A DNA stretch of 64,000 nucleotides, from assembly GCF_055900595.2 (NCBI RefSeq), contig NZ_CM148325.1, one strand, 5' to 3'. Made by a program: the position numbers and the translations under genes. Position 1 is the stretch's first letter. Every line of letters starts with the position of its first letter. Below the pieces are notes generated by a model, which was given only the letters and a program-made list of their open reading frames with translations, had not been told where the DNA came from and made no database searches. This document shows, piece after piece, positions 38,128 through 43,959 of this stretch.

Positions 38128-38370
38128 ATGAAAAAATCAGAAGTATTAGGCTATTTTGGCGGAGTTGTTAAAACAGCCGCCGCTCTAGGAACGTCAAAAA
38201 CCACAGTCAGCATGTGGGGGGAAGACGTTCCGTGGAAATGGGCGTTGCTAATTCAGGCAGTCACTGCCGGGGCGCTCAAATATGAGTTACACATACCGAC
38301 GGTTGTCATTCCCGGTTCTGATCATAATCCGCCTTCTAACCAAGGGGGGATTCATGAAAATCAAGCATGA
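38128..38370 (+). CDS. Cro/YdaS-like small HTH regulator
   Basis: ORF MKKSEVLGYFGGVVKTAAALGTSKTTVSMWGEDVPWKWALLIQ...; RBS GGAG 5 nt upstream of ATG 38128; divergent from the repressor. Confidence 0.7.
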   Translation: MKKSEVLGYFGGVVKTAAALGTSKTTVSMWGEDVPWKWALLIQAVTAGALKYELHIPTVVIPGSDHNPPSNQGGIHENQA

Positions 38371-38779
38371 ACACATCCGCATGGCGATGAATGCCTGGGC
38401 ACGTCCTGATGGCGAAAAAGTTCCGGCAGCTGGAATAACCCAGGCTTATTTTGAGTTGGGTATGACGTTTCCTAAACTGTACGACGACAGCCATCCGGAA
38501 GCCCTGGCTCGCAATACCCAGAAAATTTTCCGCTGGATAGAGAAAGACACCCCTGATGCAGTTGAAAAAATTCAGGCGTTGTTACCAGCGATCGAAAAGG
38601 CAATGCCACCTTTGCTGGTGGCCAGAATGCGCAGCCACAGTTCAGCTTATTTTCGGGAGCTGGTGGAGACGCGGGAGCGACTGGTGAGAGACGCTGATGA
38701 TTTTGTCGCAGTGGCAATCGCCGGTTTCAATCAGATGAACCGTGGTGGCCCGGCTGGAAATGCTGTGGCAGTACATTGA
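38354..38779 (+). CDS. YdaT-like early regulatory protein (CII-position gene)
   Basis: 141-aa ORF MKIKHEHIRMAMNAWARPDGEKVPAAG...; N-terminus matches Rac YdaT (MKIKHEHI...) as I recall it; RBS AAGGGGGG. Confidence 0.6.
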   Translation: MKIKHEHIRMAMNAWARPDGEKVPAAGITQAYFELGMTFPKLYDDSHPEALARNTQKIFRWIEKDTPDAVEKIQALLPAIEKAMPPLLVARMRSHSSAYFRELVETRERLVRDADDFVAVAIAGFNQMNRGGPAGNAVAVH

Positions 38780-38850
38780 CTGACAATAGCCATATCGAAT
38801 CGCTTCCGGCAACTCGTGAGTAAAAAGATTCGGTATCAGAAGAGGTGAGT

Positions 38851-39921
38851 ATGGCTAACGCCTGGCTCAGATTATGGCATGACATGCCAAATGACCCTAA
38901 GTGGCGAACAATTGCCAGGGTGTCAGGGCAGCCAATTGCAACAGTGATGGCAGTGTATATCCACCTCCTGGTGAGCGCGTCACGAAATGTCACGCGAGGT
39001 CACATTGATGTCACGACAGAAGATTTGGCAAGTGCGCTCGACGTGACAGAAGAGGTAATTGATTCAATTTTGCAGACGATGCAGGGGCGGGTACTTGATG
39101 GTGATTTAATCACTGGATGGGAAAAACGCCAGGTGCTGAAAGAGGACAACGGTAATATTTCGCAAACCGCAAAATCTCCGGCAGAGCGCAAGAGGGCGCA
39201 GCGAGAGAGGGAAAGAAAGCGGGAACAAAATGGCGATTGTCACGGCGAGTCACGAAATGTCACGCACATGTCACGACGAGTCACGACAGATAAAGATACA
39301 GATAAAGATACAGATCAAGAAGATCAAAACACTATGGTCCATGGCGTAAAAAACGCCGCGAACCAGGCAGGGGATGTTCAGACCGTCAATCTTGGTCAGC
39401 CAGCAGGCACGACACCGGAAGCCGATTCAGCGTATGCGCTGAAAGCCGATTCGGGCGCTGTGCAGCAGGTGATGACCGCAAGGCAGGAGCAATCACACCA
39501 ACTTCAGCAGCCTGAAGCCGATTCCGCCATTCAGCGGGAAGCCGATCGGGTAGTCCCGGAAAACACCGGGCAGCCTGTGGGACGAGTGGATTATCCTGAT
39601 GTGTTCGAACAGGTCTGGCGGGAATACCCGTTGCGTGCCGGGGCAAACCCGAAGAAATCCGCTTTCAGTGCCTGGAAGGCCAGATTACGCGAGGGGGTGC
39701 CACCAGAGGCCATGCTGGATGGCGTGAGGCGTTACGCAAGATACCTGGCGGCTACCGGGAAAACGGGAACGGAATTTGTTCAGCGAGCGACGACGTTTTT
39801 TGGACCGGACCGGAATTTTGAAAACCCCTGGTTGCTCCCGGTAAGCGGTACGAACAACCAGCGTTGTGTGAATCATATTTCTGAACCGGATACCGAAATT
39901 CCACCGGGCTTCAGGGGGTAA
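38851..39921 (+). CDS. Phage replication initiation protein (DUF1376/YdaU-like, lambda O-position) containing internal iterons
   Basis: ORF MANAWLRLWHDMPNDPKWRTIARVSGQPIATVMAVYIHLLV...; position after the cro/cII-like genes; internal phased GTCACG repeats. Confidence 0.6.
   Translation: MANAWLRLWHDMPNDPKWRTIARVSGQPIATVMAVYIHLLVSASRNVTRGHIDVTTEDLASALDVTEEVIDSILQTMQGRVLDGDLITGWEKRQVLKEDNGNISQTAKSPAERKRAQRERERKREQNGDCHGESRNVTHMSRRVTTDKDTDKDTDQEDQNTMVHGVKNAANQAGDVQTVNLGQPAGTTPEADSAYALKADSGAVQQVMTARQEQSHQLQQPEADSAIQREADRVVPENTGQPVGRVDYPDVFEQVWREYPLRAGANPKKSAFSAWKARLREGVPPEAMLDGVRRYARYLAATGKTGTEFVQRATTFFGPDRNFENPWLLPVSGTNNQRCVNHISEPDTEIPPGFRG
38979..39015. repeat. Iteron cluster A (4 x GTCAC(G/A) at 10-11 bp phasing) inside the replication gene
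   Basis: GTCACG at 38979, 38989, 39010 and GTCACA at 38999; shares 17-mer GTCACGAAATGTCACGC with cluster B. Confidence 0.55.
39239..39330. repeat. Iteron cluster B (5 x GTCACG at 10-11 bp phasing) plus adjacent A-rich tract; candidate phage ori
   Basis: GTCACG at 39239, 39249, 39259, 39270, 39280 followed by GATAAAGATACAGATAAAGATACAGATCAAGAAGATCAAAAC. Confidence 0.55.
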
Positions 39922-39961: not shown

Positions 39962-40387
39962 GTGGCAAAAGTTTTTACACAAGAAGAGCGAGAAAAAATT
40001 AAGGGGCAGGTTGTTGAACTTGTACGTCTGAGTGGTCGCGAGACGTTACGGGCTCTGGAGGCTAAAACCGGTGCATCAAGGTATTACATAAGCACTCTCG
40101 CCAGAGAGCTGGTTGCCAGCGGCGATGTATACAACTCTGGTTACGGATTATTCCCGTCTGAACAGGCTCGTAAGGACTGGCAAAATGCCCGCAAAAAACT
40201 CTCAAGGGCAAAGCTGAAGAAAAAAACATCTGTGGTTGATCCGGACCTTATCTGGTCATTACCTGACGGAGAAATACGTCGCTACGACAGTCGTCTAAAC
40301 ATAATCTGTCGCGAGTGCCGGAAGAGCGAAGTTATGCAGCGCATACTGGCATTTTATCAGGGAAATGTTTGGTATTTATTGAAATGA
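39962..40387 (+). CDS. Hypothetical prophage early protein
   Basis: 141-aa ORF (GTG start) (M)AKVFTQEEREKIKGQVVELVRLSGRETLRALEAKTGASRYYISTLARELV... ; basic, possible HTH. Confidence 0.45.
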   Translation: MAKVFTQEEREKIKGQVVELVRLSGRETLRALEAKTGASRYYISTLARELVASGDVYNSGYGLFPSEQARKDWQNARKKLSRAKLKKKTSVVDPDLIWSLPDGEIRRYDSRLNIICRECRKSEVMQRILAFYQGNVWYLLK

Positions 40388-40627
40388 CGAGATTAAAGAG
40401 CATTAGTTCAGATATTAATTGACACTTCGGTTGCATAAGACTAGAACTAGTGTGATTGGCATCTTTGTACCAAAAACGGACATTACAGTGTATGGTTAAT
40501 TCTGCCTGTCAAATAACTTACATTCATCAAATGATCGAAATTATGACTTAGCTCAACAATTAGGTTTAGCATGGGTCATATGACTAGAGTGTAGCAACTT
40601 TCTGCTATAATTTAATAAGGATAAAAA

Positions 40628-40855
40628 ATGCCAGCTTATGCTAATAAAGGCGGTAATTCGGGTATAGTGTTTTATGAGATTACTCCAGATGCTATCACAG
40701 TACAGTTTAAAGATGGATGGAAATACGTTTACGATTCTACAAAACCAGGGGCTTCAACGGTCTCTAGGATGAAAGAGTTAGCCCAGGCTGGGCATGGGCT
40801 AAATAGTTTTATTAGTAGTGTGGTTAAGAAAAATTTCTCACGTAAATACCTTTAA
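40628..40855 (+). CDS. KTSC-domain small protein
   Basis: 75-aa ORF MPAYANKGGNSGIVFYEITPDAITVQFKDGWKYVYDSTKPGASTVSRMKELAQAGHGLNSFISSVVKKNFSRKYL fits the KTSC pattern; RBS TAAGGA; followed by hairpin GAGGGTG...CACCCTC. Confidence 0.6.
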   Translation: MPAYANKGGNSGIVFYEITPDAITVQFKDGWKYVYDSTKPGASTVSRMKELAQAGHGLNSFISSVVKKNFSRKYL

Positions 40856-41008
40856 TTTTAATTGAGGGTGGGAAGGACTATCACCCTCATAATTCTTCAC
40901 CATTCAATCAAGAGCAATTCAAGGTGATTTGCTCTGTACATAGTCGGTTAGTTAGCACTTCGTAATTTATTGAATAGAAGGCTTTTGGAACAGTATCTTC
41001 ACTCGTGC

Positions 41009-41257
41009 TTATCGCCCAGCAGATTTAGCAAGAATAGTCTCGAGCATTTCTGGTACGTTGCCTTTAGCATTGATAGTTGCTGTTCGGTAAGCTAGTTGAT
41101 TTTTTGAGAGATTGATTCCTGTAAGTGCTTCAATTTCGTTGCAGGCCTTACCCCATTCTACCCAGTTTTCAGACAAAAAAGATTCAAGATGATCCGCAAA
41201 TATAGCAATATCATTAGTAACTGTTGCAGCTGGAATATAGACTATGCGAAAAGCCAT
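41009..41257 (-). CDS. Hypothetical protein (convergent with KTSC gene)
   Basis: 82-aa ORF MAFRIVYIPAATVTNDIAIFADHLESFLSENWVEWGKACNEIEALTGINL...; no recognisable motif. Confidence 0.4.
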   Translation of the reverse strand: MAFRIVYIPAATVTNDIAIFADHLESFLSENWVEWGKACNEIEALTGINLSKNQLAYRTATINAKGNVPEMLETILAKSAGR

Positions 41258-41579
41258 TGGTTGACTACTTCAATGTATCCTGTATCAACAATGAAAATGT
41301 CCGTTCTTCGCTCACAGAATTAGTGCGACAGCTTCGCACCAAGAGCTGACATTGTAATATCCGACAGGCTATTGCCTGTCAGTTAACAGTTACGTGTTAT
41401 AAAAGGTCAGGCGGGATCCTGACTAGGTGTGTTTAAAGAAGTGCTGGTGGTGAGCGGGTGTTGTGTCCAATTTCCACAGAAAAAAATCTGAGAAACTATA
41501 CCCAATAGTTGTATTGAATCACTGACGAGACAGCCTCATATTTATCAGGACTGGTGTACTTCCAATTCAGGAGGTTGTC

Positions 41580-41669
41580 GTGCTGGTTCTCAAATGTGCG
41601 CTAGCTATTGCGGCTGTAATGGCAATTTATTGTCTTGCTGTTGTTCTTACGGATCGCCTTTCTGATTGA
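41580..41669 (+). CDS. Candidate small hydrophobic peptide (29 aa), possible small membrane toxin
   Basis: Perfect SD AGGAGG (41569-41574), 5-nt spacer, GTG start; translation (M)LVLKCALAIAAVMAIYCLAVVLTDRLSD = single predicted TM helix with charged tail. Confidence 0.35.
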   Translation: MLVLKCALAIAAVMAIYCLAVVLTDRLSD

Positions 41670-41823
41670 TTTTATATTGGCGAGGTGACGTGAGTTAAGT
41701 AGAATTGCTGCGGGTGCTTGAGGCTATCTGCCTCAGGCATGAACACCAACGGCAGATAGAGAAAAGCCCCAGTTAACATTACGCGTCCTGCAAGACGCTT
41801 AACATTAATCTGAGGCCAATTTC

Positions 41824-42036
41824 ATGCTAGACACATGTAGGTTAGCCTCTTACGTGCCGGAAGGCAAGGAGAAGCAGGCTATGAAGCAGCAAAAGGCGAT
41901 GTTAATCGCCCTGATCGTCATCTGTTTAACCGTCATAGTGACGGCACTGGTAACGAGGAAAGACCTCTGCGAGGTACGAATCCGAACCGGCCAGACGGAG
42001 GTCGCTGTCTTCACAGCTTACGAACCTGAGGAGTAA
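41824..42036 (+). CDS. mokD: Mok-like leader frame (N-terminally extended hok reading frame)
   Basis: ATG at 41824, MLDTCRLASYVPEGKEKQA-MKQQK...; same frame as hok, as in annotated mok/hok pairs. Confidence 0.5.
   Translation: MLDTCRLASYVPEGKEKQAMKQQKAMLIALIVICLTVIVTALVTRKDLCEVRIRTGQTEVAVFTAYEPEE
41881..42036 (+). CDS. hokD: Hok-family type I toxin (HokD/RelF-like)
   Basis: 51-aa ORF MKQQKAMLIALIVICLTVIVTALVTRKDLCEVRIRTGQTEVAVFTAYEPEE. Confidence 0.9.
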   Translation: MKQQKAMLIALIVICLTVIVTALVTRKDLCEVRIRTGQTEVAVFTAYEPEE

Positions 42037-42202: not shown

Positions 42203-42817
42203 ATGCAGAATTTATCTCAACAGTTGTTAGAAGCATATGACAAGGAGTGCCGCAAAGAGCTTTCGATCGCGTTAGCACAGGCTTATCTTCATTCGCATAT
42301 GAAGGCAAAAGAGTTTGGTTCTTTTTGGGCTCAAGCACAGTCATATTTGCGCTGGTTTTATGCCGATGCATTGCTTGAGAATGCGGCTAAGCGTGTGGGG
42401 CTGGATTTTGAAGTCGGTAGCAATGCTGCTAAAAATTGTAAACACATTGCGATTCACTCGAACAACTGGAAAATGACGGCACATCATTTATCGGGTAATG
42501 CGCCACTTCCTAAGCAGGCATTGTATAGAGCTGTTTACGCTAATCAAAATTATGAATTGAATTTTGGGGATGAAAATGCCGACTCCCTGGATGGGAGAGC
42601 GTCTGGTGGACATGTTTATATGTTACATGATGGCAGTAATCAGCACTTGTCCAAACTGAATTTAACTGTTCCTTCTTCGGATAATTACGGGATTCTTTAT
42701 ACTGAGTCTTTACCAATTATGACGATGGTAGAAGTTGAAGCAGAAAATGTGGATTCTGAGATTGAAGATAAAATCAAGATTCTTACCGAACAAATAATTA
42801 AATCACAGCAATCATGA
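42203..42817 (+). CDS. Uncharacterised protein, upstream partner of the HTH-peptidase gene (candidate toxin/effector)
   Basis: 204-aa ORF MQNLSQQLLEAYDKECRKELSIALAQAYLHSHMKAKEFGSFW...; RBS AAGGA; stop overlaps the next gene's start (ATGA); no motif recognised; AT-rich. Confidence 0.7.
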   Translation: MQNLSQQLLEAYDKECRKELSIALAQAYLHSHMKAKEFGSFWAQAQSYLRWFYADALLENAAKRVGLDFEVGSNAAKNCKHIAIHSNNWKMTAHHLSGNAPLPKQALYRAVYANQNYELNFGDENADSLDGRASGGHVYMLHDGSNQHLSKLNLTVPSSDNYGILYTESLPIMTMVEVEAENVDSEIEDKIKILTEQIIKSQQS

Positions 42818-43959
42818 GCATGAATATCGCACAAACACCATTTACTGATAAATCGTTTAATCCTCGTCGCCTTGAGGAGGCAAGAGAGGCAAAAGGGTTG
42901 ACGATGGCTGAACTTGCCAGAGTGCTCAATATTTCAAGACAAGCTATTTCGTCATTTGAGAAGGGGTTGAAGTCTCCCTCTGCTGATACACTTTCTGCAA
43001 TAGCCAAGGTGTTAGGATTTCCAGAACGATTTTTCTTAGCCTCCAGTGCTTCTCCATCTCTGGAGGGGGCGATTCATTTTAGAAGTCGTTCAACTGCGAC
43101 CAAAAAGGCTCGAGTTACAGGGAAAACACGTGGGCGTTGGGCGGCATTAATATTGGATGAATGTCTAAAATATGCTCAATTACCAGATGTGGTTCTGCCT
43201 GAATTCGATATTATTGATTTTGAGGTTCTGTCTCTATCTGATATTGAGGATATGTCCACCCAATTAAGGCGTTTTTGGGGGTTAGGTGATGGTCCAATAC
43301 TCAATTTAACTAGACTTGTTGAAAATAAAGGAATCGTGGTTTCTCATTTACCTTCTGGTGAGAAAGTTGATGCCTTTTCGTTCTGGCATAATGGGCGGCC
43401 TTTAATTATGTTAGATAGCTCGAAGACGGCTGTTCGCATGCGATTTAGTCTTGCTCATGAACTTGGCCATTTAATTATGCATAGGGCAGTGGAGGATGAC
43501 TACCTGAATGATAAAGAATTATTCGACCTGGTGGAGTTGCAGGCCGATTATTTTGCCTCCAGCTTTTTAATGCCAGCCACCACTTTCGGGCGTGAATTTT
43601 ATAGTCCAAATTTATCAGCGTTAGAACGATTAAAACTACGTTGGATTACATCTATCGGTAGTATTGCCATGAGGAGTCATAGCCTTAAGTTAATCAGCGA
43701 TAATCAGAAAAGCTATATATTTAAGCAATTAGCGCCATTCCATCGTAGGGAGCCGTTAGATGATGCAATCCCAAAAGAAGAGCCTGAGTTACTTAATAAG
43801 TTACTTTTACTTCTTGATAAGCATTCAATCATAAAGGTAACTGAGTTAACTGATATCTTTGCTCTTCCCTTAAATGAGTTATCTGCAATTACACGATTTA
43901 AAGAATCAGATATGATTCATTCTGACAATGTTATTTCATTTACCATAAAACAAAAATAA
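42814..43959 (+). CDS. XRE-family HTH fused to ImmA/IrrE-type zinc metallopeptidase
   Basis: 381-aa ORF; N-terminal HTH (...LTMAELARVLNISRQAISSFEKGLKSPSADTLSAIAKVLGF...) and HExxH motif in ...RFSLAHELGHLIMH...; translationally coupled to upstream gene. Confidence 0.8.
   Translation: MSMNIAQTPFTDKSFNPRRLEEAREAKGLTMAELARVLNISRQAISSFEKGLKSPSADTLSAIAKVLGFPERFFLASSASPSLEGAIHFRSRSTATKKARVTGKTRGRWAALILDECLKYAQLPDVVLPEFDIIDFEVLSLSDIEDMSTQLRRFWGLGDGPILNLTRLVENKGIVVSHLPSGEKVDAFSFWHNGRPLIMLDSSKTAVRMRFSLAHELGHLIMHRAVEDDYLNDKELFDLVELQADYFASSFLMPATTFGREFYSPNLSALERLKLRWITSIGSIAMRSHSLKLISDNQKSYIFKQLAPFHRREPLDDAIPKEEPELLNKLLLLLDKHSIIKVTELTDIFALPLNELSAITRFKESDMIHSDNVISFTIKQK

Follow-up and report, generated by a model that had tools for sequence, protein, structure and literature searches.

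An intact KTSC-fold gene beside the remnant of an OLD-family nuclease gene: a probable decayed moron cassette in an E. coli prophage

Morons, as Hendrix and colleagues reportedly framed them, are autonomous cargo units lying between backbone genes. We compare with them, and with two groups of described proteins, a locus within 64,000 nucleotides of contig NZ_CM148325.1 (RefSeq assembly GCF_055900595.2), the whole of which is called the window below. It holds two convergent open reading frames (ORFs), ORF-A of 75 and ORF-B of 82 amino acids, placed between the replisome-organiser and DUF977 genes and hokD (Table 1). On the side of ORF-B, the relevant systems are the OLD-family nucleases: class 1 members, whose prototype is Old of phage P2, stand alone, while Gabija (GajA-GajB) and PARIS (AriA-AriB) pair a protein having the same ATPase and TOPRIM core with a partner. 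On the side of ORF-A, they are the KTSC proteins (PF13619), with a crystal structure from Methanolobus vulcani (PDB 7x8c). KTSC has been called a DNA-binding domain (PMC9503650) and proposed to bind DNA or RNA (PMC7824862). Systems made of a HerA-like ATPase, a KTSC protein and an endoDNase are mentioned by Aravind's group in a statement that rests on unpublished observations (PMC9503650).

We read the locus as a decayed 2.6-kb moron cassette in the slot between the DUF977 (Ren-like) gene and hokD, where an intact ORF-A stands beside a destroyed OLD gene, and put the probability of this reading at about 0.85. An earlier reading, made from the nucleotide letters and ORF translations (the sequence-only reading), had seen a pair of convergent small genes in an AT-rich islet, separated by a hairpin and preceded by two similar motifs. 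The ORFs, the hairpin, the composition and the motifs are all present where it placed them. A functional pair is not: the supposed 82-residue protein of unknown function is the 3' remnant of an OLD nuclease gene.

The identity of the remnant comes from three E. coli genomes with the same prophage, which carry, identically placed and oriented, a 626-amino-acid 'ATP-dependent nuclease' (WP_044866928.1; strain SCU-113, locus L002). Residues 8-82 of ORF-B are identical to its residues 552-626 at 74 of 75 positions, residues 9-82 matching 553-626 exactly. The window and L002 are collinear either side of a 1.7-kb gap, and strand, position and flanks agree. Missing from the window is L002 6857-8581, which amounts to 1,725 bp and comprises 71 bp ahead of the start codon, then codons 1-551 together with some of codon 552; the junction is blunt. 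Both domains of the complete protein, an AAA_15 ATPase (residues 1-383) and an OLD-like TOPRIM (444-510), lie within the missing part. Pfam and PADLOC scans of ORF-B returned nothing, with neither a Walker A ATPase domain nor a TOPRIM domain; since both catalytic domains are gone, nuclease activity from the window remnant is impossible.

Judged by these alignments, ORF-B is a pseudogene fragment with a fortuitous start, descended from the OLD gene and almost certainly without function. Its relatives in databases are few, among them a partial 'ATP-dependent endonuclease', and each is either the same remnant (in versions altered by a point change or a frameshift, truncated by IS3, or called from another start) or a piece of a broken or partial OLD gene; hence there is no family of 82-residue proteins. 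This bears directly on the notion that ORF-B might work in its own right, for instance as a C-terminal-domain protein that modulates or blocks OLD-type nucleases. Such a role could appeal to the intact, ATG-started frame kept in 22 genomes, to its annotation as a coding sequence by the Prokaryotic Genome Annotation Pipeline (PGAP), and to the retention of part of the former OLD upstream region. We consider it highly improbable: besides the missing family, no clear Shine-Dalgarno sequence is seen before the ATG, the deleted-form copies are nearly identical to one another and so give no sign of selection, an IS3 insertion is tolerated, and the fragment lies beyond the TOPRIM domain. WP_001557861.1, 'hypothetical' in RefSeq, should count neither as a small gene nor as an anti-defence candidate.

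The complete nuclease gene and ORF-A travel as one block. A 2,585-bp segment of the SCU-113 prophage (L002 6085-8663) is 93.7% identical to a segment of a CP4-like island (L005 5836-8420), which holds a 95%-identical copy of ORF-A whose protein is recorded from Yersinia enterocolitica. This cassette extends from 164 nucleotides upstream of the ORF-A gene to 153 nucleotides upstream of the nuclease gene. Across 5,426 complete E. coli genomes, the ORF-A module occurs in 33. Twenty-two of these have the deleted form found in the window, two have the deleted form with an IS3 element inside the remnant, and three keep the nuclease intact. In the other six, the module sits in another lambdoid prophage, downstream of tail-fibre genes, with a dCTP-deaminase gene in place of the nuclease; this replacing defence gene encodes 592 amino acids (PADLOC 2.2e-127), and the breakpoint falls 60 nucleotides into the 3' end of the OLD gene. 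From the deletion form together with the dCTP-deaminase replacement, it follows that the nuclease was lost at least twice. Intact, deleted, IS3-hit and dCTP-deaminase-swapped copies make the locus a clear case, found in nature, of how fast the defence cargo of a single prophage slot turns over. The IS3 element, seen in E. coli SWHEFF_68 and CUVET21-1780 (L003 5737-6995), interrupts the remnant at window position ~41113-41116.

The host of the cassette, to judge by gene order, is a Qin-type lambdoid prophage of E. coli integrated adjoining rspB/ynfA. The window matches E. coli chromosomes at 100% identity, and its prophage genes run integrase, excisionase, exonuclease, dicB, repressor/cro, YdaT, replisome organiser, DUF977, ORF-A/ORF-B, hokD, two genes, DUF968 and Q antiterminator. 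GC content is 0.33-0.42 across ~40350-41550, against 0.50-0.60 for the replication genes. The backbone right of the cassette, upstream of hok, is present in 1,740 of the 5,426 E. coli genomes, and in strain NU14 the slot between DUF977 and hokD is occupied by two unrelated hypothetical genes. A common backbone with other cargo in NU14 marks this slot as a cargo hotspot and the cassette as a moron-type insertion. In this respect the sequence-only reading holds: the islet is rich in AT and is accessory cargo, in a slot of a lambdoid prophage whose content varies.

How does the intact sister gene relate to described nucleases? It resembles the class 1 enzymes in its AAA_15 domain with Walker A motif GPNGAGKS, its OLD-like TOPRIM, its prophage location, its best PADLOC match (Old, 1.3e-55) and the lack of a helicase partner. 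It also matches the models of GajA and AriA, by way of the ATPase and TOPRIM core that they have in common. Unlike in Gabija, class 2 OLD or PARIS loci, there is no adjacent GajB-type UvrD-like helicase or AriB: its neighbours are ORF-A and hokD in E. coli, or island genes. With no partner and Old as the best match, it is a member of neither Gabija nor PARIS. The window differs from any class 1 locus in keeping only the last 74 codons, with no ATPase and no TOPRIM.

The complete cassette consists of two convergent transcription units, ORF-A with its own upstream region and terminator and, on the opposite strand, the 626-residue nuclease of class 1, P2-Old-like type. By analogy with P2 Old, the latter would be an ATP-dependent enzyme, expressed from the lysogen in the direction opposite to the early operon and excluding other phages. 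The 1,725-bp deletion left the last 74 codons fused in frame to a chance ATG, and OLD-type exclusion would be lost in the window. ORF-A would still be expressed from its own signals and, as it is co-oriented with the early operon, also by read-through on induction. The sequence-only reading had guessed at anti-defence or superinfection-exclusion cargo: the second kind, superinfection exclusion or defence, agrees with the OLD nuclease of the sister prophages, and nothing supports the first.

In the homology and structure checks that had been proposed, ORF-B has no family of its own, and ORF-A is conserved and has the KTSC fold. ORF-A is a real gene under purifying selection across its family, with pairwise ratios of non-synonymous to synonymous substitution of 0.07-0.32 over eight loci. 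Close homologues, at 65-95% identity, number 29, and 26 have a length of exactly 75 amino acids; they come from Yersinia, Pectobacterium, Citrobacter, Kosakonia, Buttiauxella, Erwinia and Ewingella. When 1.84 billion representative proteins were searched with a profile, at least 1,698 clusters, taken at 50% identity, had E<=1e-3, and 745 had E<=1e-10; most members are stand-alone proteins of 74-76 amino acids. Those with a named source belong to Proteobacteria, Arcobacter (Campylobacterota), Bacteroidota and Cyanobacteria, and all are 'hypothetical'. The family signature is an N-terminal M-x-x-Y-x-N-x-x-G-x-S-G, plus A-x-x-G-x-G-L-N.

At the level of fold, the assignment to KTSC stands. The AlphaFold2 model of ORF-A (mean predicted local distance difference test score 90.5) has the KTSC fold as in the solved structure 7x8c, and Foldseek gives a probability of 0.99 to KTSC-annotated phage proteins. 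As in KTSC domains, a conserved central Y-x-Y motif lies within a domain of ~60 residues; its tyrosines, Y33 and Y35, are invariant across 30 sequences and nearly so across 40 more distant ones. At the level of Pfam, the assignment fails: ORF-A has no hit even at E<=10 and does not reach the PF13619 gathering threshold (25 bits), none of 120 listed relatives carries a precomputed PF13619 annotation, and the members with a named source have no precomputed Pfam domain at all. Of the 40 more distant relatives, 7 hit KTSC (best E 0.0099, all below cut-off) and no other family recurs among the hits; one UniRef entry labels an ORF-A homologue 'KTSC domain-containing'. NCBIfam and PADLOC scans of ORF-A gave nothing, and a profile search of PDB sequences gave only noise. 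Foldseek against the PDB gave no hit at E<=0.001; the top one, 8wiv (SIR2-HerA complex), is not convincing. Thus ORF-A, for all that it shares the fold and the Y-x-Y motif of KTSC, forms a separate sequence family, with only 11% identity to 7x8c.

Its closest viral structural relatives are virion proteins of phiKZ-like jumbo phages (201phi2-1 B3FJW3, PA7 I7CN88, Phabio, PhiPA3 gp375; PHROG 17428 and 24656), at template modelling scores of 0.91-0.94 and 32-38% identity over all 75 residues. In these phages, the domain is one part of proteins of 233-768 amino acids, whereas ORF-A is free-standing. Fusions also occur among relatives: in a metagenomic protein of 265 amino acids (P0181), an ORF-A-type domain (residues 1-73) is joined to a TIR domain (88-200; TIR_2 2.2e-18), and another relative (P0141) is fused to DUF4177. 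We weakly favour binding of nucleic acid or of a ligand as the function of ORF-A: this proposal draws on its fold, that of KTSC, on its net charge of ~+5 and its helix-GxG-helix element, and on the literature cited above. ORF-A might then be a small binding protein that rides with defence cargo, possibly assisting or modulating it, rather than an obligate nuclease subunit.

ORF-A also has signals of its own. The hairpin downstream of it folds at -13.9 kcal/mol, as well as which only 3 of 200 shuffled sequences fold. A GC-rich stem-loop starting 7-15 nucleotides past the stop codon is found at 11 of 18 loci, and at 7 of the 8 loci of the close enterobacterial group. Its stem sequence varies between loci (GAGGGTG, GAAGGGGAG, GGGGGCA, AGGGCGGAT, GAGGGCGG, AAGGCGGA), and some copies are followed by a good U tract. 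The stem-loops were folded locus by locus; RNAalifold on the MAFFT alignment of the 3' regions gave no pairs, as the stems are misaligned there. Since the stem-loop is conserved with covariation in other contexts, the hairpin, real as it is, is the terminator of ORF-A itself and not a feature of the gene pair.

Upstream, two non-coding blocks are conserved, with majority fractions of 0.71-0.86; the corresponding values are 0.73 for third codon positions and 0.2-0.6 for sequence farther upstream. Within the blocks lie the near-palindrome TGAyyTAGCTCA and the second of the two motifs which the sequence-only reading had proposed as regulatory sites, and the blocks are probably a promoter, an operator or a 5' leader. 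The first of these motifs belongs to the prophage backbone. The two agree at 11 of 12 positions, 143 bp apart, and 15 other repeat pairs of similar size occur in the same 1.1 kb; the chance test of the motif was circular, its pattern having been drawn from these two copies. We reject them as paired regulatory sites, the first being outside the cassette and the similarity no better than that of other short repeats; the second retains its place in conserved upstream sequence. We also rejected the idea that the upstream block encodes a leader peptide, which in the window would read MIEIMT, since Erwinia and Buttiauxella do not preserve the frame.

Having conserved upstream blocks and a terminator to itself, the ORF-A gene behaves as a moron. 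The cassette as a whole resembles lambdoid morons in its lower GC content (0.33-0.40 against ~0.50), its insertion between conserved backbone genes and its patchy presence in related prophages; it differs in that its promoter is only a candidate and half of it is destroyed. Several points pull against our reading. The -10-like element TGCTATAAT occurs only in close relatives, that stretch being poorly conserved elsewhere; a scan for consensus sigma-70 promoters upstream of ORF-A passed none and did not report TGCTATAAT, and no convincing -35/-10 pair can be placed within the conserved blocks. The direction of the event, a deletion here rather than a gain in the other lineage, is argued from parsimony, as the remnant keeps the reading frame in which a complete gene ends. 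Conservation of the basic residues of ORF-A does not extend to the wider family, and N-termini resembling signal peptides or those of lipoproteins occur in a few relatives; with some members looking exported, a universal DNA-binding role is weakened.

Beyond the cassette that E. coli shares with the Yersinia island, where the OLD nuclease is convergent with ORF-A, homologues of ORF-A recur beside diverse defence genes. The Citrobacter copy has a Type II restriction-modification system on one side and a DUF2130 gene with an 80%-identical OLD on the other. The neighbour is a PDC-S06 candidate defence ATPase in Kosakonia (E 8e-281), an EcoRII-type restriction-modification system within a P2-like prophage in Erwinia, and an FtsK-like protein matching the SspH and mad8 models in Ewingella. 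Elsewhere, it is an AbiJ-like protein (L027), or a HerA-like ATPase with an unknown 227-residue protein (L033). The last context recalls the HerA-KTSC systems; the window itself has no HerA-like gene. In Arcobacter, a distant OLD-family gene, the ORF-A homologue and GmrSD form an operon. Other homologues lie in P4-like or capsid-encoding, satellite-like elements, beside integrases or terminases, in phage operons, or at apparently ordinary chromosomal positions. The association of the family with defence genes among the contexts sampled, counted without a matched control, is suggestive.

Two of these loci deserve description in themselves. In Arcobacter sp. CECT 8983 (L057 1-8402), a row of genes of defence type is co-oriented: an SbcC-like ATPase, a 97-residue ORF, the OLD-family ATPase-TOPRIM gene, the 75-residue KTSC-fold gene, GmrSD and DUF2779, with very short intergenic gaps flanking the KTSC-fold gene. 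In Citrobacter freundii (L012 6621-10120), the OLD gene is followed in the same operon by a gene for a 538-residue DUF2130 protein without a PADLOC match; this may be a two-gene OLD variant.

Could ORF-A and OLD be obligate partners in a defence system of two components, ORF-A serving as its sensor, adaptor or immunity factor, so that the window holds an orphaned partner? Between E. coli and Yersinia the two travel together in a single 2.6-kb block, the 80%-identical OLD of Citrobacter is still linked to an 80%-identical ORF-A, and in Arcobacter a 40%-identical ORF-A lies 17 nucleotides downstream of the OLD-family gene. Linkage of ORF-A with OLD was found only in these three settings. No ORF-A homologue lies near any of nine OLD orthologues on viral contigs (69-74% identity), the flanks covered being 4 kb to either side for six loci and shorter for three, of which one extends only ~100 bp downstream. 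Homologues of ORF-A have quite different neighbours or none, and ORF-A, convergent with OLD, possesses its own upstream region and terminator. Because linkage is scattered and ORF-A is absent from the covered flanks of the nine orthologues, the link with OLD is recurrent and not obligatory, and we regard the obligate pair as unlikely.

The same contexts bear on whether ORF-A counters defence instead, for example by binding a host nuclease or a signalling molecule, its defence neighbours reflecting nothing more than shared hotspots. It is small, autonomous and fast-spreading, it occurs in prophages, satellites and islands, and the virion proteins of phiKZ-like jumbo phages with the same domain may be injected. 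We find this role quite improbable: no known anti-defence family is matched, homologues also stand in chromosomal, apparently non-mobile contexts, the Arcobacter copy is inside a host defence operon, and the fusion of a relative to TIR is an architecture of the defence type. A more general proposal starts from the repeated linkage of the ORF-A family to OLD-family nucleases, its HerA-like and other defence neighbours, the TIR fusion and its place within jumbo-phage virion proteins. It holds that anti-phage loci have in this family an accessory component so far overlooked, which would serve as a portable sensor or modulator by binding a ligand or nucleic acid; we entertain it tentatively, as possible if on the doubtful side. 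As a decayed defence moron, the locus is ordinary for prophage biology, and its value lies in a corrected annotation and a modest lead on ORF-A. What potential for discovery there is lies in the small KTSC-fold family alone, which is widespread, under selection, unnamed in Pfam, NCBIfam and PADLOC, and recurrent beside defence nucleases.

Table 1. Features of the ORF-A/ORF-B locus and its surroundings, in window coordinates.
Feature	Position	Strand	Basis or remark
Replisome-organiser gene	38845-39921		
DUF977 gene; PHROG 'Ren-like exclusion protein'	39962-40387		
First motif of the sequence-only reading, CATAAGACTAGA	40434-40445	+	Prophage backbone, outside the cassette (left edge 40464)
Remainder of the 2.6-kb cassette (ORF-A gene and OLD nuclease)	40464-41317	.	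L002/L005 block limits mapped to the window
Two conserved non-coding blocks upstream of ORF-A	40512-40563 and 40570-40593	+	Alignment of 8 loci from 8 contexts
Second motif of the sequence-only reading, CATATGACTAGA	40577-40588	+	In the second conserved block
TGCTATAAT, extended -10-like element, 17 nucleotides before the ATG	40603-40611	+	Sequence reading
Shine-Dalgarno sequence AAGGA of ORF-A	40618-40622	+	
ORF-A, 75-residue KTSC-fold protein, WP_001557863.1, intact	40628-40855	+	
Terminator-like stem-loop of ORF-A, 9-bp stem, weak U tract (AUAAUUCUUC), 8 nucleotides past the stop; arms TGAGGGTGG (40863-40871; also written UGAGGGUGG) and UCACCCUCA (40881-40889)	40863-40889	+	
Second stem-loop, ~74 nucleotides past the OLD stop; probably served the former nuclease gene as terminator	40911-40935	-	Folding; kept in L002 and L005
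ORF-B, 82-residue ORF, WP_001557861.1	41009-41257	-	ORF list; PGAP coding sequence, 'hypothetical'
OLD-family nuclease 3' remnant: codons 553-626, part of codon 552, stop codon	41009-41235	-	Alignment to WP_044866928.1
Deletion junction GCTGGAA/TATAGAC	41235-41236	.	Comparison with L002
Fortuitous ATG, six more codons and two bases of codon 8 of ORF-B	41236-41257	-	DNA formerly 72-93 nucleotides upstream of the OLD start
Remaining retained region upstream of the former OLD gene, to the cassette right edge	41258-41317	-	
hokD	41881-42036		

Around the cassette, some further features of the prophage were noted. A megablast search against a phage collection gave no match, and in an Rfam scan only sok near hok matched, nothing being found within the AT-rich islet. 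The hok/sok locus is complete (41712-42036): the sok model scores 115.8 bits (41712-41886), and a mok-like frame starts at 41824, ahead of hokD. Between the cassette and this locus, a palindromic GC-rich stem (GGTCAGGCGGGATCCTGACT, 41405-41424) was picked up on each strand as terminator-like. Within the backbone, ahead of hok/sok, an unannotated ORF of 29 codons (41580-41669, +; VLVLKCALAIAAVMAIYCLAVVLTDRLSD) encodes a hydrophobic peptide behind a strong AGGAGG Shine-Dalgarno sequence; the 261 bp around it, which bear no annotated feature, are the stretch found in 1,740 of the 5,426 E. coli genomes. Possible identities for this ORF are a type I toxin-like gene and a small membrane peptide. On the other side of the replication genes, the longest ORF at 38282-38779 (+) encodes 165 amino acids with a YdaT toxin domain; the RefSeq product is shorter (141 amino acids) and overlaps the cro-like gene.

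Other cargo was seen as well. The two genes filling the slot between DUF977 and hokD in E. coli NU14 (L053 345-2324) are co-oriented, encode 320 and 333 amino acids without a PADLOC match, and could be uncharacterised cargo of a defence hotspot. In the window, two overlapping genes between hokD and the DUF968 gene (42203-43959, +; 204 and 381 amino acids) match the RosmerTA defence system. The RmrA match is strong (E 5.5e-102), with helix-turn-helix and peptidase M78/ImmA-like domains, and that of RmrT is weak (7.5e-10). These RosmerTA-type genes occupy a second cargo slot of the same prophage, and this defence system is apparently intact.

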